Shown here piece after piece: positions 14,322-56,019 of a stretch of 64,000 nucleotides of DNA. The DNA is from an uncultured bacterium (GTDB lineage Bacteria; Patescibacteriota; JABMPQ01; CAVVCK01). A model generated the notes under the pieces. The model saw only the letters and a list, made by a program, of their open reading frames with translations, was not told the DNA's origin and made no database searches. A program made the translations under genes and the position numbers. How positions within the stretch are numbered: the first letter of the stretch is position 1; each line of letters opens with the position of its first letter. The stretch covers positions 232,978 through 296,977 of the forward strand of contig CAVVCK010000002.1 of assembly GCA_963746775.1 (NCBI GenBank). The letters run 5' to 3'.

Positions 14322-14462
14322 CCTTCTCCCCTCAGCTGACCACGTATGAAATTCCGTGAAATTTTATAAATTTATTCTTAATCCATAAATTTTATACGTG
14401 GTGAGGAGACAGGGGGGTGCTCCGATGTACATCGGAGCACCCCTCCTAAATTGAAGAGGGGA
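14322..14462. promoter_or_regulatory. Structured divergent intergenic region (lgt <-> udg): nested inverted repeats incl. 14-bp GC hairpin
   Basis: accacgtat...atacgtggt 9-bp arms ~54 nt apart; ggggtgctccgatg-tac-catcggagcacccc perfect hairpin; outer tccttctcccctc / gaggggaagaa arms; CACGTATGAAATT motif related to rpsB-upstream repeats. Confidence 0.4.
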
Positions 14463-16143: not shown

Positions 16144-16177
16144 TTATATCTGCAGGGAACAGGCATGCCTGTTCCCT
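16144..16177. repeat. Perfect 32-bp palindrome (intercistronic znuC-znuB), core ACAGGCATGCCTGT
   Basis: ctgcagggaacaggcatgcctgttccctgcag; same 14-nt core recurs inside prmC at 55756..55783; GGGAACA arms recur at 32780..32807. Confidence 0.5.
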
Positions 16178-16192
16178 GCAGAACATTATTTA

Positions 16193-41187: not shown

Positions 41188-42384
41188 TCAAAATACAGGG
41201 GTAGGTTTCATAGTTTCTGTAGCTCTTTCTTTGCTATTGCTACTAGAATGCCTGGGGAAAATTATTAAAAGATCAGCTTCTTCTAAAGTATACATAAAAT
41301 CATTATTACCTACCCAACTTATTGTACGACCTTCTATATTGTCTTCCTGATCATATTCGTATTTGACAACTGCCGCATCTCCGTATTTATTTCTATAATC
41401 AATCAAACTTGCCTCCATATTACCTTCATTTCCCCTGTATATCGGCCAAATATATGCTACCCCATCTTTTTTTAATAATCTATCAATTTCATCCCAATAA
41501 ACATCAAATTCTCTTTTTTCCATAACTGGAAACATATGAGTGGAAATAGACCAAGAAGCAATTAATCTATCAAATTGCTTATCTTCAAAAGGCATATCTG
41601 GAAAAGCAGCTTTTACCATTTCCGCTTGCTTATATTTTTTAATAAATCTGTATTCTTGTACTAAATTCTTTATTATTCTTTCTTTTTGCTCTTCAGTAAT
41701 TCCTCTATTTTTAATCATTTCTTCTTCAATCGCTGGCTCAATTACTTTTTTTACTAGATATATATCAGCAAAACCTCTTTGTAATTTATTCACATCATAC
41801 CATAAATTTTTTAAATCATTTTCAGAATCACCCATATCACTGCTATGTTCTTTTTTCTCTTTATTAATTAGTTCTACTATATAACCAGAAAGTTCAGAAA
41901 GCTTTGGATAATTTTCAATTTCTAAATTTGTCATTAACTCTTTCAGTTGTTCTTGCGCCAAATTTATTGCAGTAACTAAACCTTTTCTATTATTAATAAG
42001 TCTATTGCAGAATACTTCAATATTTTTAATATAATCTTCTGCTTTTTTTAAAAATTCCTCTTCATTATACTGAAATTCAGCTTCTTCTCCTAATTCATAA
42101 TCTACATTCGTAACACCCTCTAAATCAAGTGTTTGCCAGGGATCACCAATATTTAATATTTTTCCATCTTCTGGAAATAATTCTTCACGAGCTACTCCTG
42201 ATTCTAAGACATAATCTTCTACCTTTCTACCAGTTAATGCTTTTTGTTCCTTATCTACAATTTCTATTGATCTTATTATTCTTTTTTTTATTCTATCCAA
42301 AATATCTTTATCAGCCTCTTCTATCTGATTGTTAATATCTCTTCTAACATCTTTTTCTGGAACTTTTCTTCCAAATCCTTCCAT
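41188..42384 (-). CDS. Hypothetical protein (398 aa, acidic, no family recognised)
   Basis: Long ORF with consistent local codon usage; coiled-coil-rich N-half, globular C-half. Confidence 0.4.
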   Translation of the reverse strand: MEGFGRKVPEKDVRRDINNQIEEADKDILDRIKKRIIRSIEIVDKEQKALTGRKVEDYVLESGVAREELFPEDGKILNIGDPWQTLDLEGVTNVDYELGEEAEFQYNEEEFLKKAEDYIKNIEVFCNRLINNRKGLVTAINLAQEQLKELMTNLEIENYPKLSELSGYIVELINKEKKEHSSDMGDSENDLKNLWYDVNKLQRGFADIYLVKKVIEPAIEEEMIKNRGITEEQKERIIKNLVQEYRFIKKYKQAEMVKAAFPDMPFEDKQFDRLIASWSISTHMFPVMEKREFDVYWDEIDRLLKKDGVAYIWPIYRGNEGNMEASLIDYRNKYGDAAVVKYEYDQEDNIEGRTISWVGNNDFMYTLEEADLLIIFPRHSSSNSKERATETMKPTPVF

Positions 42385-42465
42385 TTATTTTATTAAATTA
42401 ATAAATATTAAAAAATAATTTCTATGGAATTATTATATTAAAAAATACAATTTGATATTAACATA

Positions 42466-42507
42466 CAGGGGCGGTAGGAATCGAACCTACGTCGCTGGTT
42501 TTGGAGA
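42466..42507 (-). tRNA. 3' portion (nt 31-73) of a split tRNA-Trp(CCA)
   Basis: Minus strand TCTC-CAAA-ACCAG-CGAC-GTAGG-TTCGATT-CCTAC-CGCCCCT-G; anticodon-stem 3' strand ACCAG and acceptor 3' strand CGCCCCT complement the 5' portion at 42978..43010. Confidence 0.6.
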
Positions 42508-42562
42508 CATCTGCCTAGAGCACTAGGCAGATGAGCCATCTGCCTAGAGCACTAGGCAGATG
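42508..42562. repeat. Two tandem copies of a 26-bp perfect palindrome CATCTGCCTAGAGCACTAGGCAGATG
   Basis: 11-bp arms plus 4-nt centre; copies at 42508..42533 and 42537..42562 separated by AGC; directly abut anticodon nt TCTC of the tRNA fragment. Confidence 0.8.
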
Positions 42563-42584
42563 AGACCAGCATCACATTATTAAA

Positions 42585-42854
42585 CTATTTTTTATCTTTT
42601 AATTCCAACCTCTTCATTAAACCGTAATATGCAGAACCGCTATTCTTTAATGATTTCTCTCGTTTTAAAGCTAAGTATTTATCATTAAATGATTCATAAT
42701 AAATAAGCTTAATTGGCAAATATTTTTTAGTACTTTTTACCATCCCTTTCTGATGGCTATCAATTCTTTTCTTTAAGTCACTAGAATATCCGATATAGTA
42801 TTTTCTATTTGGCCTTTTTATTTTAAGAATATATACATAAAACATAATCTTCAT
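42585..42854 (-). CDS. GIY-YIG nuclease-domain protein (UPF0213/YhbQ-like, 89 aa)
   Basis: FYVYILKIKRPNRKYYIGYSSDLKKRIDSHQKG...IKLIYYESFNDKYLALKREKSLK; start codon 1 nt after the 3' end of tRNA-Trp. Confidence 0.75.
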   Translation of the reverse strand: MKIMFYVYILKIKRPNRKYYIGYSSDLKKRIDSHQKGMVKSTKKYLPIKLIYYESFNDKYLALKREKSLKNSGSAYYGLMKRLELKDKK

Positions 42855-42855
42855 A

Positions 42856-42926
42856 CAGGAGCGGTAGGAATCGAACCTACACCTCCGGTTTTGGAGACCG
42901 GAATTCTACCACTAAACTACGCTCCC
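42856..42926 (-). tRNA. tRNA-Trp(CCA), intact
   Basis: GGGAGCG-TA-GTTT-AGTGGTA-GAAT-T-CCGGT-CTCCAAA-ACCGG-AGGT-GTAGG-TTCGATT-CCTAC-CGCTCCT-G. Confidence 0.8.
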
Positions 42927-42952
42927 CTTTTAATAATTTTTAGTTTTGGAGC

Positions 42953-42978
42953 CATCTGCCTAGGGCACTAGGCAGATG
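42953..42978. repeat. Third copy of the 26-bp palindrome (CATCTGCCTAGGGCACTAGGCAGATG)
   Basis: One centre substitution relative to the tandem pair; again inserted after anticodon nt 34 of a tRNA-Trp 5' portion. Confidence 0.8.
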
Positions 42979-43010
42979 AGACCAGCATTCTACCACTAGA
43001 CCACGCCCCC
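42978..43010 (-). tRNA. 5' portion (nt 1-34) of the split tRNA-Trp(CCA)
   Basis: Minus strand GGGGGCG-TG-GTCT-AGTGGTA-GAAT-G-CTGGT-CTC; complements the 3' portion at 42466..42507 in acceptor and anticodon stems. Confidence 0.6.
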
Positions 43011-43192
43011 ATGCACTAAATACCAAAATACAAAAAACAAACTACAAAAATATATTATTGATTTTTATAATTTCTAATTTAGAATTTGTAATTTGTTTGG
43101 AAATTGATTATTGAAAATTGGAAATTTTTAACCAATTTCCTTATATGTACATTTAAAATAAATTGAAGCTTGGCTAGTGCGTCTATTTCGTT

Positions 43193-43348
43193 TCCTTATG
43201 TACCGTATGTTTCTTACAAAACTTGCAATATTTCTTTAATTCCAGCCTTTCTTTCAAAATCTTTTTATTTTTATGAGAATGATAGTTGATATTATGACAT
43301 TCCGTACATTCAAATTTTATCAGATTGTCTTGTGACATATTTTTTTAA
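43193..43348 (-). CDS. rpmG: 50S ribosomal protein L33
   Basis: Minus-strand [54 protein letters not shown] (51 aa; CxxC...CxxC zinc ribbon); below the ORF-track size cutoff. Confidence 0.75.
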
Positions 43349-43530
43349 CTTATTAAATAATTTTATTAATACTATAACTAAAATCCCTATTTAGCAACCT
43401 TATTTCAGAACATATGAAAAATTTTACTTTAGAATATTTATAGAAAAATTTTTCGAACGTTCCAAGACTCAGATATTAAACAAAATCACCTGATTTAAAC
43501 ACTTTTAAATAGAAATCCTAATATAACAAG

Positions 43531-44427
43531 TCATTTCACAAACTTCAAATATTGTATTATCCATATCCCGCCTTCTCCTTCTTTAACTGGCTGTCTTAAA
43601 TAAACCTTATATTCAGAATTCAGATGATTAACTTTCATATAAACTTCGCTATTATTTTTAGATACTATTACACTTTTTATATCTTCCAGATCATATCTAA
43701 ACATATTAGCAATATCATGATTCGTCGTCTCTATGGGATCAAGCCGCCATAAATCATTTCCATTATCAATTGATTGCTGCATACCCTGCATTGTATCCTT
43801 GCTTACTGGAAAATAAAATATTTCAGTGGATTTAAAAGTTTTCTGCCATTCACCATCTTTATTCTTCTCATAGTATTGCAAGGGTCTATCTATAAATGGA
43901 TCATTGCCTTCATTCAATTCCCATATAAAATTATTGGGAGTAAAATCAGCAATTCTTGAACAATTAACAGTTTCGCTTGATTTGACACAATAAACTAAAA
44001 TACGACCCAAGGCATGATCATCGTTATATTCAACATAGAAATTACTATTATTTACAAAAGAAAATTTATTAATGGTCCACTCTGGATCATTGTTAGATAA
44101 AAATGGAGTTAATTGATTTATGTTGTTTTCTGTATAATCAATAAATTCTTTTCTTAAATTATCATCTACGGTTTCAACTTCTCCCTCTCGGTTATAAATA
44201 TCAGAATTTAAAACATTTTCTTTGTTTAAATCTAAATATTTTTGATTAGTATTAATAATATTTTTAGATTTTTCTTGATAAATTTTTAATGAAAAATAAA
44301 ATAAAATACCTAAAATTATGAGGCACAAAATAACTATTAATATTTTACCTGCTTTTTTCATCTTGATCTTATTTATAAATACGAACCACAAAATTAAACA
44401 ACTATCTACAGTGACCACTAAATCCAC
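43531..44427 (-). CDS. Hypothetical membrane-anchored/secreted protein
   Basis: Probable true start at MKKAGKILIVILCLIILGILF signal-anchor; no family recognised. Confidence 0.4.
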   Translation of the reverse strand: MDLVVTVDSCLILWFVFINKIKMKKAGKILIVILCLIILGILFYFSLKIYQEKSKNIINTNQKYLDLNKENVLNSDIYNREGEVETVDDNLRKEFIDYTENNINQLTPFLSNNDPEWTINKFSFVNNSNFYVEYNDDHALGRILVYCVKSSETVNCSRIADFTPNNFIWELNEGNDPFIDRPLQYYEKNKDGEWQKTFKSTEIFYFPVSKDTMQGMQQSIDNGNDLWRLDPIETTNHDIANMFRYDLEDIKSVIVSKNNSEVYMKVNHLNSEYKVYLRQPVKEGEGGIWIIQYLKFVK

Positions 44428-44482
44428 TCCATCCGTAACATTAAAAATAGCGGATAAGGCGGATTGTTGCGGATAGGCGGAA
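44421..44482. repeat. Array of GCGGAT hexamers (8-10-bp spacing) preceded by inverted ATCCAC/ATCCGT
   Basis: aatccactccatccgtaac ... aGCGGATaagGCGGATtgttGCGGATagGCGGAaaaa; same motif (as ATCCGC) clustered at 32849..32886 and 33411..33471. Confidence 0.6.
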
Positions 44483-44571
44483 AAAATATAAAGAATCTTG
44501 TAATCAGCATTTACAATGAAATTCTATCATAATAAAAAAATGTAAACAATCATTTTGTTTACATTTTTTTA

Positions 44572-44643
44572 AGCCACCCGTCGGATTCGGACCGACGACC
44601 TACTGTTTACAAAACAGTTGCTCTACCACTGAGCTAGGGTGGC
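44572..44643 (-). tRNA. tRNA-Thr(TGT)
   Basis: GCCACCC...ACTGTTTTGTAAACAGT (anticodon UGU)...GGTCCGAATCC...GGGTGGCT. Confidence 0.8.
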
Positions 44644-44729
44644 GAATTGCTAAAAATATAAAATATTAAAAAAATAAAAATTTATTTCTTTTCATTTTTT
44701 ATATTATTTTATTTTTATATTTTTACTAT

Positions 44730-44812
44730 TGGGCCGGGCAGGATTTGCACCTGCGTAGACCGAAGCCAGCAGATTTACAGTCTGCCCCATTTGACTACTT
44801 TGGTACCGACCC
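44730..44812 (-). tRNA. tRNA-Tyr(GTA) with long variable arm
   Basis: GGGTCGG...GCAGACTGTAAATCTGC (anticodon GUA)...long variable arm...GCAGGTGCAAATCCTGC-CCGGCCC-A. Confidence 0.7.
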
Positions 44813-44824
44813 ATATTTTTAAAA

Positions 44825-44897
44825 AGCCCACCATCGGATTTGAACCGACGACCTACTCCTTACCATGGAGTTGCTCTACCAACTGAGCTAAGTGGGC
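44825..44897 (-). tRNA. tRNA-Thr(GGT)
   Basis: GCCCACT...ACTCCATGGTAAGGAGT (anticodon GGU)...GGTTCAAATCC...GGTGGGCT. Confidence 0.8.
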
Positions 44898-44919
44898 CTA
44901 GACAACAGCAGTAGCTATA

Positions 44920-45564
44920 CTACCCTTTTAAGAAATTTAACTTATCTAATTCTTCAATAGCTTCACTATCATTAGGATCTATTTTTAAAACCTGTTCATA
45001 AGAAGCTATGGCATCTTTTTTATTGTATTGTTTGGCATATAATCTACCCAATCCTTTGTAAGCTCTTATATTTTTAGAGTCCACTTTTACTACCTCTATA
45101 TAATTACTTTCTGCTTCTTTGTAATTACCGCTGCCTAATTTCTCAGCCGCCTCTTCTAATAAATCAATGACCTTCTTTTCTTCTTCACTTTCTTTTTTAA
45201 TTTCATCGCTAGGCTCATTTTCAGTTTTTTCTTTAACTGTTTTACCCTGATTCAAATCAAGCTTATCTTTAACCAATCCTGACAATAAATCATTTTCATC
45301 TTTTTTATTAATTTTAGTCTTTTCTTTTCTGGCTTTTTTAATACCTGAAAAAATACCTTTAACTATAGACACACTAAATATTCTCAAACGTTTTCCAATA
45401 TATTTTAAAACAGATAATATTCTAGCACCTATAGTCTCTTCTTTATTTCCTTTATCTAGTTCTTTTTGGCTATATTTCGAAGCTTCAGGAAATTTCTTAA
45501 TAATTATGACAATAATAATAACAATAGCAACTAAAATTATAATCTGTGGAATAAAACTAAACAT
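44920..45564 (-). CDS. TPR-repeat protein with N-terminal TM anchor
   Basis: N-terminal hydrophobic segment; C-terminal YIEVVKVDSKNIRAYKGLGRLYAKQYNKKDAIASYEQVLKIDPNDSEA TPR units. Confidence 0.5.
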   Translation of the reverse strand: MFSFIPQIIILVAIVIIIVIIIKKFPEASKYSQKELDKGNKEETIGARILSVLKYIGKRLRIFSVSIVKGIFSGIKKARKEKTKINKKDENDLLSGLVKDKLDLNQGKTVKEKTENEPSDEIKKESEEEKKVIDLLEEAAEKLGSGNYKEAESNYIEVVKVDSKNIRAYKGLGRLYAKQYNKKDAIASYEQVLKIDPNDSEAIEELDKLNFLKG

Positions 45565-53822: not shown

Positions 53823-53843
53823 CATTTATAGGGGTTCAAAATT

Positions 53844-55043
53844 TTGAACCCCTACAAAAAACTTATGAAAAACAAAAACACTAACAAAACAAAAACATCC
53901 ATTAAAGAAATATTTTCTATTCTAGGCCTATTTTTAATTTGGCGAATTATTTTGCAATTTATCGCTTTCCTAAGTAAAAACAGATTTTCACTAAATCCTG
54001 ATACTGGCTATGGCAATATTGAATCTTGGGAAGCACCTATTGCCAATTTTTTTAAATATTGGATCAGATGGGATTCTGGATTTTATTTGCAAATTGCGGA
54101 ACACGGCTACTATTTTGACCAAGCAAACAACTTATCTAATACACCCTTTTTTCCCCTATATCCCCTCTTGATTAATACCTTAGGAATTGTATTCGGAAAT
54201 TTATATGCTGGACTAGCCATCTCCTTCATATCAACTTTCTTGGCTTGTTTCTATTTGTACAAATTAGCCAAAACCCATCTTAAAGAAAGAGCGGCTATAA
54301 GATCAGTTTTTTATTTTCTAATTTTTCCTACAGCTATATTCTTATCTGCTATATATACTGAATCCTTATTTATGGCTTTATCTATCGCCTCTTTTTATTA
54401 TGCTAGACGCAACCAGTGGCTATATTCAGGTATATTTGGCTTTCTGGCAGCACTAACAAGGCCTCAAGGTATTTTATTATTTCCCGTACTGCTATTCGAA
54501 TACTTGGAACAAAAGAAATTTAATATTAAAAAGATAAGACTAAATACTCTCTGGACATTATTAGTACCTGCTGGACTTTTTGTTTATATGTATTATTTAA
54601 AAATAAAGTTTGGAAGTTTTTTCTTATTCATTTCCGCCCAAAATAGCTGGGGCAGAAGTACAAATTTTTCTGCTAAGTCCGTTTATGATACCTTTTCTAA
54701 TTATTTTCATGACCTTTTCTTTCCTGGAGTTGAAAGCTTCACTTATTATTTAGTAAAAGACTTAGATTTATTTTTCTTTTTATCATTTTTGGTGCTTTCA
54801 ATAATTGTATTTGTAAAATTTAGAATGTCCTACGGTTTCTATATGGTTCTAAGCTTAATGATACCTCTGATGACTTCTTCTTTAATGAGTATTAATAGAT
54901 TCGTTTTGCTTCTATTCCCCACTTATATTTATTTAGCCAAGATCAGCAAAAATCAAATTATCCAATACAGCATAATATTGCTTTTCTCTTCTCTTTTTGT
55001 AATATATACTATTCTATTCACCAATTGGTATTGGGCAGGGTAA
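53844..55043 (+). CDS. Polytopic membrane protein, GT-C/PIG-V-like mannosyltransferase family (putative)
   Basis: ~11 TM helices; WDSGFYLQIAEHGYY motif resembling PIG-V/DUF2029-type glycosyltransferases. Confidence 0.4.
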   Translation: MNPYKKLMKNKNTNKTKTSIKEIFSILGLFLIWRIILQFIAFLSKNRFSLNPDTGYGNIESWEAPIANFFKYWIRWDSGFYLQIAEHGYYFDQANNLSNTPFFPLYPLLINTLGIVFGNLYAGLAISFISTFLACFYLYKLAKTHLKERAAIRSVFYFLIFPTAIFLSAIYTESLFMALSIASFYYARRNQWLYSGIFGFLAALTRPQGILLFPVLLFEYLEQKKFNIKKIRLNTLWTLLVPAGLFVYMYYLKIKFGSFFLFISAQNSWGRSTNFSAKSVYDTFSNYFHDLFFPGVESFTYYLVKDLDLFFFLSFLVLSIIVFVKFRMSYGFYMVLSLMIPLMTSSLMSINRFVLLLFPTYIYLAKISKNQIIQYSIILLFSSLFVIYTILFTNWYWAG

Positions 55044-55116: not shown

Positions 55117-56019
55117 ATGAAATTTAATAAATCGATGTTTATAAAAGAAGTACTAAAATTATCCTTCCAAAAACTTAAAAATATATCTACTACTCCTGAT
55201 CTAGATTCAGAAATATTATTATCACACGTCTTAAAAAATGATCGCGCTTTTCTATTAGCCAATTTAGATAAAAAAATAACTTCCAGCCATTATAAAACTT
55301 TTCAGAAATTAATAACTCGACGCGCTAAACATGAACCTATTGCCTATATTACAAATAATAAGGAATTTTATGGACTTAATTTTTATGTAAATCACGATGT
55401 ATTAATTCCCCGCCCCGAAACTGAATTAATCGTTGAAAATGTTATAAACGTTGTAAACAATCGATCTCAACGCGCAAAGCAATCGAACGTTTTAAACATT
55501 TGCGACGTTGGCACCGGTTCCGGCTGCATCGCTATTGCTCTTGCTAAAAATATCCCTCAAGCCAAAATTTACGCTGCCGATATTTCCAAGAAAGCGCTAG
55601 ATGTAGCTAAATTTAACGCTAAAAGACATAAAGTTTTAAGTAAAATAAAATTCTATAATGGAAATTTATTAGAACCAATTCCTAAAAAAATAAAGTTTAA
55701 TATCATAATTGCTAATCTTCCCTATCTCTCAGAAAAACAATATATAAATATTGTAGAGGACAGGCATGCCTGTCCTCTACAATACGAACCCAAATCAGCC
55801 CTCATAGCAAAAAATCATGGTATGGAATTTTATATAAAATTATTAAAACAAGTTCCAAAATATATTAAAAAAGAAGGCTATATATTATTGGAAATAGATC
55901 CTTCTTTTGAGAATAAAATTATTTTTGAGACCATAAATATTTTAAAAATTAAAAGAAATCAAATAAATATAAAACCCGATCTGCAAGGATTGAGTCGGGT
56001 TTTAACAATTAATATTTAA
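55117..56019 (+). CDS. prmC: Release-factor glutamine N5-methyltransferase PrmC (HemK)
   Basis: CDVGTGSGCIAIALA motif I and IIANLPYL (NPPY-type) motif; follows prfA; contains an in-frame 28-bp perfect palindrome at 55756..55783. Confidence 0.8.
   Translation: MKFNKSMFIKEVLKLSFQKLKNISTTPDLDSEILLSHVLKNDRAFLLANLDKKITSSHYKTFQKLITRRAKHEPIAYITNNKEFYGLNFYVNHDVLIPRPETELIVENVINVVNNRSQRAKQSNVLNICDVGTGSGCIAIALAKNIPQAKIYAADISKKALDVAKFNAKRHKVLSKIKFYNGNLLEPIPKKIKFNIIIANLPYLSEKQYINIVEDRHACPLQYEPKSALIAKNHGMEFYIKLLKQVPKYIKKEGYILLEIDPSFENKIIFETINILKIKRNQINIKPDLQGLSRVLTINI
55756..55783. repeat. 28-bp perfect palindrome GTAGAGGACAGGCATGCCTGTCCTCTAC inside prmC coding sequence
   Basis: Encodes VEDRHACPLQ segment; shares 14-nt core ACAGGCATGCCTGT with the znuC-znuB intercistronic palindrome. 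Confidence 0.6.

Follow-up and report, generated by a model that had tools for sequence, protein, structure and literature searches.

A tRNA-Trp gene in an uncultured bacterium of the Patescibacteriota is split at position 34/35 of its anticodon loop by an insert of ~470 bp, located within a 64,000-nucleotide (nt) stretch of contig CAVVCK010000002.1 (the window). The insert is a cassette that brings together a tRNA-Trp to replace the split one, the gene of a small stand-alone GIY-YIG nuclease and, at both junctions, the 24–26-bp palindrome proper to the clade of that nuclease. We consider it probable (roughly 0.6) that the resident, rpmG-linked tRNA-Trp gene was invaded at this position by a selfish homing-type cassette supplying the replacement tRNA, and that the two halves are the relics of the invaded gene. 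The observations behind this explanation are the architecture of the locus, its recurrence in related bacteria, the linkage and co-variation of palindrome and open reading frame (ORF), the selection acting on the ORF, the existence of plain sites and the foreign character of the live tRNAs. Two traits are unusual for a homing-type selfish gene at tRNA loci, namely the minimal SLX1-like nuclease and the co-evolving palindrome. A preliminary description of the sequence had recognized the split gene and its contents; the co-evolution of palindrome and nuclease, and the resemblance of the latter to SLX1 and UPF0213 proteins instead of Seg or I-TevI enzymes, go beyond it.

We read the region 42300–43200 on the minus strand and confirmed the coordinates segment by segment (Table 1), finding the two halves, the intact second tRNA-Trp(CCA), the GIY-YIG ORF and three palindrome copies where the preliminary description had placed them. 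Joined to each other, the outer halves yield a sequence of 71 nt that ARAGORN calls as a canonical tRNA-Trp(CCA), as had been proposed, with the acceptor strand CGCCCCT of the 3′ part pairing with GGGGGCG of the 5′ part (F5); the uninterrupted form of the site would read CTGGTCTCCAAAACCAG. Keeping one palindrome between the joined halves results in the call of a tRNA-Trp with a 29-nt intron. On the native locus ARAGORN with its intron options reports the intact tRNA only, because the 470-nt insert exceeds its model. A 40-nt direct repeat, 98% identical, is present on both sides of the insert, whose sole ORF of at least 40 amino acids (aa) is the GIY-YIG gene; it encodes no tyrosine or serine recombinase and no transposase. 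An AT-rich spacer of 16 nt separates GCTCCAAAAC from the intact tRNA-Trp. Downstream of the ORF, a duplicate of tRNA nt 24–34 had been noted, which is indeed present as ATGCTGGTCTC at 42572..42562, but closes a longer degenerate tRNA copy spanning nt 8–34 (F5*), whose junction is common to the window and three related loci (L001–L003; loci on other contigs carry such numbers throughout). Likewise, the start codon had been placed 1 nt after the intact tRNA, which holds for the listed ATG at 42854; the start is probably the second ATG at 42845, 10 nt past the tRNA, because the amino terminus MYYVY/MFYVY is common to all homologues. Processing of the tRNA 3′ end would make an mRNA with this start nearly leaderless. 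A promoter and terminator scan of the locus gave nothing beyond shuffled expectation; a candidate −35/−10-like site upstream of F5 (43076..43049) is a lead only.

Table 1 Features of the split tRNA-Trp locus in the window
Feature	Position	Strand	Remarks
rpmG (ribosomal protein L33)	43183..43338	-	Pfam Ribosomal_L33, E = 7.8e-18; marker of the conserved rpmG–tRNA-Trp locus
F5, resident tRNA-Trp 5′ part GGGGGCGTGGTCTAGTGGTAGAATGCTGGTCTC	42978..43010	-	nt 1–34; 3′ end is anticodon-loop CTC
Palindrome A, ATCTGCCTAGTGCCCTAGGCAGATG	42953..42977	-	25 nt; with C34 and the next G a 26-nt palindrome with 11-bp arms
GCTCCAAAAC, anticodon-loop remainder	42943..42952	-	nt 31–40; cargo side of palindrome A
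Live tRNA-Trp(CCA), cassette-borne, intact	42856..42926	-	ARAGORN; Rfam RF00005, 70.5 bits
GIY-YIG nuclease ORF	42585..42854	-	89 aa as listed, 86 aa from the likely start 42845; PF01541, E = 3.6e-14
F5*, degenerate tRNA copy, TAGTTTAATAATGTG+ATGCTGGTCTC	42562..42587	-	nt 8–34; overlaps the ORF stop codon
Palindromes B and C in tandem	42537..42561 and 42508..42532	-	25 nt each, GCTC between them
Resident tRNA-Trp 3′ part TCTCCAAAACCAG...CGCCCCTG	42466..42507	-	nt 31–73; blastn against the live tRNA, E = 5e-8

Two classical kinds of tRNA intron do not describe this insert, in agreement with the preliminary description. An Rfam scan at E ≤ 1 over 42000–45200 returned the tRNAs and two chance-level matches, and a group I intron is further at odds with an insert holding a whole tRNA and an ORF. 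A bulge–helix–bulge (BHB) intron can be dismissed as well, as the junctions lie at the base of a perfect 11-bp hairpin without 3-nt bulges and an intact tRNA-Trp is present. Campbell-type site-specific recombination between the palindromes would give the same layout, but a recombinase is lacking, and the tRNA remaining after excision would be dead.

The arrangement recurs in related bacteria. We detected 124 homologues of the ORF; those few that bear a source name all belong to the candidate phyla radiation (CPR; Pace-, Collier-, Moran- and Vogelbacteria). A product identical to that of the window ORF is not on record in the collection searched, which therefore lacks the source genome. For the eight closest homologues with retrievable contigs, picked by protein similarity alone (P0020, P0002, P0008, P0013, P0001, P0005, P0003 and P0025), we found all eight at a tRNA-Trp gene, mostly directly after rpmG, and all eight loci hold truncated copies of tRNA-Trp with a GC-rich palindrome interrupting them, as a rule exactly behind C34. 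The rpmG neighbour is seen in L001, L004, L006, L008, L030, L063 and L065. In its commonest form the layout runs from a tRNA 5′ fragment (nt 1–34) through a 25-nt palindrome, (G/T)CTCCAAAAC and 0–60 nt to the ORF, followed after 1–40 nt by an intact tRNA-Trp; in L004, L006, L009, L010, L012 and L065 a 3′ fragment, again with palindrome, comes after it. The nearest relatives, L001–L003, are ~90% identical to the window and collinear with it through the tRNA 3′ end, the ORF, the degenerate nt 8–34 copy, the palindrome and the 3′ half; their ORF (92% identical over 50 aa) is frameshifted and the upstream 5′ fragment is missing. Other degenerate ORF copies comprise a truncated one in L017 and a tRNA-Thr-linked one in L016. 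These comparisons also bear on the possibility of an assembly chimera generated from repeated tRNA and palindrome segments, for which the 26–47-nt repeats at the locus and the many short homologous contigs (~1 kb), suggestive of assembler breaks, could be cited. We regard it as hardly credible, given that the repeats are shorter than normal reads, that the junctions from ORF through F5* and palindrome to the 3′ half are reproduced in three independent samples (L001–L003), and that analogous layouts from 5′ to 3′ fragment occur in the independent assemblies L004/L005 and L006/L007/L013.

The linkage of palindrome and nuclease gene is equally evident from DNA alone. Scanning one genome per species (GTDB) for GGTCTCAYC-N17-19-GRTG-NCTCCAAAAC, a pattern for a tRNA-Trp anticodon loop in which 25 nt are inserted behind C34, yielded 11 loci in 11 species, every one with a GIY-YIG ORF within 100 nt. 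A metagenome scan with nt 14–40 of the window tRNA-Trp, with or without insert, returned 41 real tRNA-Trp genes, all contiguous, of which three have a GIY-YIG ORF within 1.5 kb and 38 have none (Fisher p = 6e-9 versus 11/11). At L030 a plain site reads rpmG, tRNA-Trp, next gene, with a tRNA 5′ half identical to F5 at 31/33 positions, and the split gene thus also exists in contiguous form, if not in a demonstrably close relative. More distant ORFs belong to variant cassettes at tRNA-Tyr, tRNA-Thr(GGT) and tRNA-Ala genes as well as at a tRNA-Trp of Collierbacteria. Here the palindrome mostly takes the place of 10–18 nt of the dead copy around its anticodon arm; in the tRNA-Tyr copy of L004 it is inserted after nt 34. 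The distant ORFs stand directly upstream of tRNA-Tyr, tRNA-Thr(GGT) or tRNA-Ala (L006 1100–1580, L004 270–670, L015 5350–5880, L041 2050–2460), each preceded by a 5′ fragment of the same tRNA whose anticodon arm is replaced or interrupted by a GC-rich palindrome.

The preliminary description had further raised a genuinely split or permuted tRNA-Trp joined in trans. In such a model the halves or a read-through transcript would be joined as RNA, the palindromes pairing as in the split tRNAs of Nanoarchaeum or acting as a protein-spliced mini-intron. The co-oriented halves with their complementary acceptor stems, the ability of the palindrome copies to pair with each other and the acceptance of the one-palindrome version as an intron-containing tRNA by ARAGORN would fit this model. 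It is nonetheless extremely improbable: an intact tRNA-Trp lies inside the insert, and also beside the fragments at every related locus with a long enough contig (that of L017 ends first), no scanned genome holds a full-length palindrome-bearing tRNA-Trp as its sole copy, a BHB motif is absent, and most loci retain only a single truncated half. Moreover, the D-stem of F5 (GTCT/GAAT) contains a C12·A23 mismatch not found in the contiguous relatives L030 and L001, which have TGAT; to judge from the sequence, this argues against a functional 5′ half.

Comparing the split and the inserted tRNA, we found ~10 differing positions, with compensatory changes in the acceptor and anticodon stems (the live tRNA being of a GGGAGCG...CGCTCCT type), and the two therefore represent separate tRNA-Trp lineages and not a fresh duplication. 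F5 has 2/33 mismatches to the contiguous L030 gene, 3/33 to the contiguous L001 gene and 5/33 to the cassette tRNA, and the live tRNA is 7–8 mismatches away from the L030 and L001 genes. In the window, both halves thus match each other by acceptor-stem pairing and match the contiguous L030 and L001 genes, the live tRNA belonging to another lineage; flanking fragments of a lineage other than that of the live copy were also found in L014, L009 and L065. Such a pattern would be expected if a whole foreign tRNA had been imported with the cassette. At nt 22–23 F5 has the sequence of the cassette tRNA (D-stem GAAT), unlike the contiguous relatives, which suggests a short, partial gene-conversion tract from the cassette tRNA. 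The comparison of the window with L001 reveals a mosaic of tRNA types, in line with the earlier proposal of recombination between palindrome-bearing copies, which we would regard as part of the same process and not as a separate alternative. In six loci (L008, L011, L012, L015, L016 and L018) the 5′ fragment matches the local live tRNA at every one of 33 nt, in L010 it has one mismatch, in L062 it is nearly identical, and the fragments track lineage-specific tRNA differences (L016 versus L062). As the fragments equal the live tRNA while synonymous sites of the ORF are saturated between lineages, they are not old neutral debris; they have been remade by re-insertion, homogenized by gene conversion or selected.

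The nuclease is a member of the GIY-YIG superfamily (PF01541, 53.3 bits versus a cut-off of 22.6) with the catalytic residues Y8, Y20, G22, R30, H34 and E66 invariant in 48 homologues. Across the family the length ranges from 83 to 89 aa, corresponding to essentially a single GIY-YIG domain. The closest solved sequences are the UPF0213 proteins BH0048 (1zg2, E = 3e-4) and EF2693 (1ywl, E = 0.045). An AlphaFold2 (AF2) model with a confidence (pLDDT) of 94 adopts the topology E-E-H-E-H-H, including the beta-beta-alpha-beta-alpha core of the superfamily, and its best Foldseek matches are 1zg2 (UPF0213), Slx1–Slx4 and the plant Holliday-junction nuclease At-HIGLE, at probability 1.0. Based on this model the nuclease is predicted to be SLX1/UPF0213-like, that is, of the structure-specific type, and not I-TevI-like; with 86–89 aa it lacks the two-domain Seg/I-TevI layout of linker and carboxy-terminal DNA-binding domain. 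Between lineages, non-synonymous differences (pN) of 0.07–0.23 contrast with synonymous ones (pS) of 0.63–0.97, the latter near saturation, and the protein is therefore kept by purifying selection.

The locus palindrome occurs three times in the window, each time at this locus, a result matched by 0/100 shuffles. As a DNA hairpin palindrome A has a folding energy of −12.4 kcal/mol (z = −5.5) and the tandem of B and C −27.1 kcal/mol (z = −8.6), single-strand palindrome hairpins being stable at −12 to −13 kcal/mol. Across loci we distinguish family I (CATC-N-GCC-N-AG NNNN CT-N-GGC-N-GATG; window, L001, L004, L016, L062), family II (CACC-N-GTC-NNN-CGCG-NNN-GAC-N-GGTG; 13 loci) and type B (CCCCGC...GCGGGG, after CTCCAA; L028 and the middle copy of L010), which correspond one-to-one to three clades of the ORF. 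In 19 distinct palindromes 98% of the arm positions are paired and 6/11 pairs have changed on both sides, a level of pairing and covariation reached by 0/500 shuffles and not approached by any slid register, whereas four positions per half-site (CA.C.G.C) are invariant. All 26 copies of families I and II in 434 kb of fetched DNA and the window stand in tRNA-Trp anticodon-loop context, and a short flank of the GCTCCAAAAC type follows 3′ of the palindrome in all loci of these families. Their insertions can be read as a perfect palindrome of 24 nt enclosed by a duplicated 5-nt G(T/G)CTC. Tandem arrays (two copies in the window, 2+2 in L004, four in L062), in which palindromes alternate with GCTC, could be re-insertions or footprints of cargo loss via CTC microhomology. 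The palindromes up- and downstream in L006 (2945–2970 and 3358–3383) are reverse complements with one mismatch, direct copies having at least four; unlike these, the window copies are closer in direct orientation. An RNA hairpin as the sole selected role is not favoured, as family II is perfect through its centre, leaving no loop, and mismatches have no strand bias (2 U:G versus 4 other). In L018 (3990–4060) two family II-like palindromes lie between rpmG and the ORF with no recognizable tRNA fragment around them, so that the tRNA context can be lost while palindromes stay.

Could the locus have arisen in situ, with no horizontal mobility, by local duplication of tRNA-Trp, decay, and GC-rich palindromic mini-insertions tolerated in the dead copies, the GIY-YIG gene being resident or domesticated? 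The window contains four other perfect GC-rich palindromes of 24–26 nt, one of them in frame in a PrmC-like ORF, palindromes are found in the D-loops of dead copies as well (L006, L019, L063), and the purifying selection on the ORF and the six loci whose 5′ fragment equals the local live tRNA are in keeping with such an origin. These four palindromes are, however, unrelated in sequence to that of the locus, and palindrome families track the ORF clade and not the genome. The confinement of families I and II to tRNA-Trp anticodon loops, the foreign live tRNAs of the window, L014, L009 and L065, and the sporadic distribution, with 38/41 plain loci lacking the ORF, further speak against a purely local history, which we judge unlikely while granting it a real chance.

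Alternatively, the palindrome might chiefly be an expression element, either an operator that the nuclease binds to repress its own gene, or a 5′ RNA hairpin stabilizing or processing an ORF mRNA read through from the tRNA promoter; the tRNA fragments would then be by-products. I-TevI is an autorepressor acting through operator binding, and a repressor–operator pair would fit both the co-variation of ORF and palindrome and the invariant symmetric half-sites; furthermore, in most loci a GC-rich palindrome lies 10–50 nt upstream of the ATG. In the window and L001, however, the ORF is preceded by a tRNA and the palindromes are upstream of this tRNA or downstream of the ORF, and L006, L009, L012 and L065 have palindromes in 3′ fragments that no ORF follows. 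As the exact 34/35 position and the tandem arrays would likewise go unexplained, we give this alternative only a slender chance.

The favoured explanation, invasion by a homing-type cassette, accounts for the recurrence at tRNA-Trp in many CPR contigs, the plain sites and the foreign live tRNAs. The preliminary description had listed such a mobile cassette among its models; the comparative evidence favours it, apart from the likeness to Seg genes drawn there. Spread would proceed by break-induced, homology-templated copying (intron-less homing), in which the tRNA pieces would act as portable homology arms (nt 1–34 on the left, nt 35–73 on the right) and allow the cassette to be copied wherever a tRNA-Trp gene is broken, the tRNA itself probably being the only reliable homology of the cassette with a new genome. 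Because insertion splits the target, the cell would survive only if the cassette brought along a whole tRNA; the window halves would then be non-functional relics and the cassette tRNA the working tRNA-Trp. Copying by homology arms would reproduce the layouts of the window, L065, L006, L004 and the tRNA-Thr cassette of L015. The palindrome may be the cognate DNA structure or site of the nuclease (a cruciform or dimer site), and would also destroy the anticodon loop in leftover copies. A cut in the anticodon loop would fit the position of the palindrome but leave the live tRNA unprotected; palindromes as the immunity of the element are thus insufficient, as the live tRNA retains an intact site. 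An extruded palindrome in cruciform form would be an attractive substrate, considering the modelled SLX1/HIGLE-like fold and the clade-specific perfect palindromes.

Several points weigh against this explanation. The protein of 83–89 aa has no DNA-binding domain and remains far below the cut-off of the group I intron endonuclease family (NCBIfam TIGR01453, 20.1 versus 56 bits, covering profile positions 4–79 of 215), its cleavage target is one that we infer, and the strong purifying selection is equally compatible with a domesticated host function. If the anticodon loop is cut, no sequence-based immunity is visible, since the live tRNA in each cassette keeps a naive loop sequence. The empty-site comparison suggested in the preliminary description gave no empty site in a close relative of this genome, the L33 protein of L030 being only ~55% identical by eye. 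No tRNA adjoins P0073 or P0088, which are more distant homologues. Only families I and II show a clean insertion of 29 nt with duplication of G(T/G)CTC; in other families the palindrome takes the place of 10–18 nt of the tRNA copy, with no duplication. Finally, neither a relative of the ORF nor the DNA pattern of anticodon loop plus palindrome was found in the viral contigs searched, and a phage collection gave weak generic GIY-YIG matches only (33–37% identical), so that a phage vector is unsupported.

The fold of the nuclease also invites a different mode of movement, in which the locus represents a new kind of mobile unit. Here the SLX1-like protein would resolve the extruded cognate palindrome, a cruciform resembling a Holliday junction, into recombinogenic and possibly hairpin-capped ends, an idea we consider quite unlikely. 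The palindrome-bounded cargo of nuclease gene and spare tRNA would enter tRNA genes at their loop regions, a full palindrome would be regenerated at both junctions, and tandem palindromes would be footprints of cargo loss. By analogy, the element might tentatively, and at the same low odds, be seen as a GIY-YIG counterpart of the repetitive extragenic palindromes (REPs) with their REP-associated tyrosine transposases (RAYTs), or of hairpin-dependent transposons, specialized on CPR tRNA genes. If true, this would add a new mechanism to those by which DNA moves.

Invasion by a homing-type cassette has its nearest parallels among free-standing homing genes. SegB of phage T4, the precedent for such a mode of spread, is a GIY-YIG homing enzyme whose target includes a conserved tRNA motif and whose homing co-converts neighbouring tRNA genes (PMC2330249). 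The cassette shares with the free-standing Seg enzymes of T-even phages the location of a GIY-YIG gene among or beside tRNA genes and the presence/absence polymorphism, but its protein consists of the catalytic domain only, is SLX1/UPF0213-like, and resides on a CPR chromosome and not in a phage; neither a cognate palindrome nor a split target with replacement gene nor fragment arrays are described for Seg elements. Seg and I-TevI enzymes have ~200–250 aa including a carboxy-terminal DNA-binding domain. Like islands and prophages in tRNA genes, the cassette is inserted in a tRNA gene, leaves the displaced fragment as a direct repeat and keeps a working tRNA. In contrast to them it has no integrase or recombinase in its ~470 bp, supplies a whole tRNA and not the 3′ end only, and has its junction in the anticodon loop, marked by palindromes.

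With REP/REPIN–RAYT systems the cassette has in common a nuclease gene flanked by short palindromes, a palindrome family of the clade's own, and single or clustered copies. RAYTs, however, are HUH/Y1 enzymes and REPs are dispersed in hundreds of intergenic copies, whereas the cassette enzyme is of GIY-YIG type and palindromes of families I and II are found only in tRNA-Trp anticodon loops. GC clusters of yeast mitochondria and palindromic elements of Rickettsia are short GC-rich palindromes of AT-rich genomes, associated with short duplications, single or in tandem, tolerated in genes and often found beside mobile endonuclease ORFs; the cassette palindromes resemble them in GC content, short flanking duplications and single or tandem occurrence. 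To our knowledge, neither one-to-one co-variation with a nuclease clade nor a single target site is known for these elements. SLX1, At-HIGLE and UPF0213 (YhbQ), the best sequence and fold matches of the cassette nuclease, are not known to us as mobile-element or tRNA-linked genes. Enzymes of this group cleave branched DNA, Holliday junctions included, and an extruded palindrome resembles such a structure. SLX1 requires SLX4 and has a RING domain, which the cassette nuclease lacks.

We found no description of tRNA-linked GIY-YIG/palindrome cassettes in a full-text literature search whose coverage leaves out most subscription journals, in agreement with the preliminary description, which knew of none from CPR-like bacteria. 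In recent surveys of Patescibacteria tRNA introns, Trp, GIY-YIG and palindromes all go unmentioned. The cassette would parasitize a gene that is essential and, in genomes of very small size, apparently present only once; it would do so with neither intron ribozyme nor integrase, by providing a spare copy of its target. The nuclease–site pair links an uncharacterized, widespread UPF0213/YhbQ-like and SLX1-like family to a clade-specific palindrome partner. In practical terms, the cassette accounts for the tRNA fragments and the breaks in assembly seen at tRNA loci of CPR metagenome bins, and tRNA-Trp calls at such loci may refer to cassette-borne, horizontally imported copies, of which annotators should be aware.

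A few further observations were made on the contigs compared. Two contigs with typical CPR cassettes, L014 and L015, are labelled 'uncultured Gammaproteobacteria' and 'Thermodesulfovibrionia', probably through binning errors of metagenome-assembled genomes. In L018 (3486–3750) a tRNA-Thr(GGT) is interrupted after the anticodon loop by ~230 nt, which may be a group I intron as reported for tRNAs of Patescibacteria. In L074 (900–1500) a GIY-YIG ORF follows, at a distance of ~150 nt, smpB and a tmRNA-like 3′ end without an ARAGORN call, the region being flanked by GC-rich palindromes.

The additional palindromes of the window comprise a perfect GC-rich one of 24 nt, AGAGGACAGGCATGCCTGTCCTCT, at 55755–55778, which lies in frame in a PrmC/HemK-like methyltransferase ORF (55117–56019, plus strand) and separates the NLPY and QYEP motifs by ~8 additional residues (EDRHACPL), as in-gene palindromic elements of Rickettsia do in their hosts' genes. 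Three further perfect palindromes of 26 nt are located at 14416–14441, 16153–16178 and 53829–53854, in sequence of 31.5% GC. The palindrome at 16153 shares the core GGAACAGGCATGCCTGTTCC with the copy at 55755, suggesting a second family unrelated in sequence to that of tRNA-Trp.

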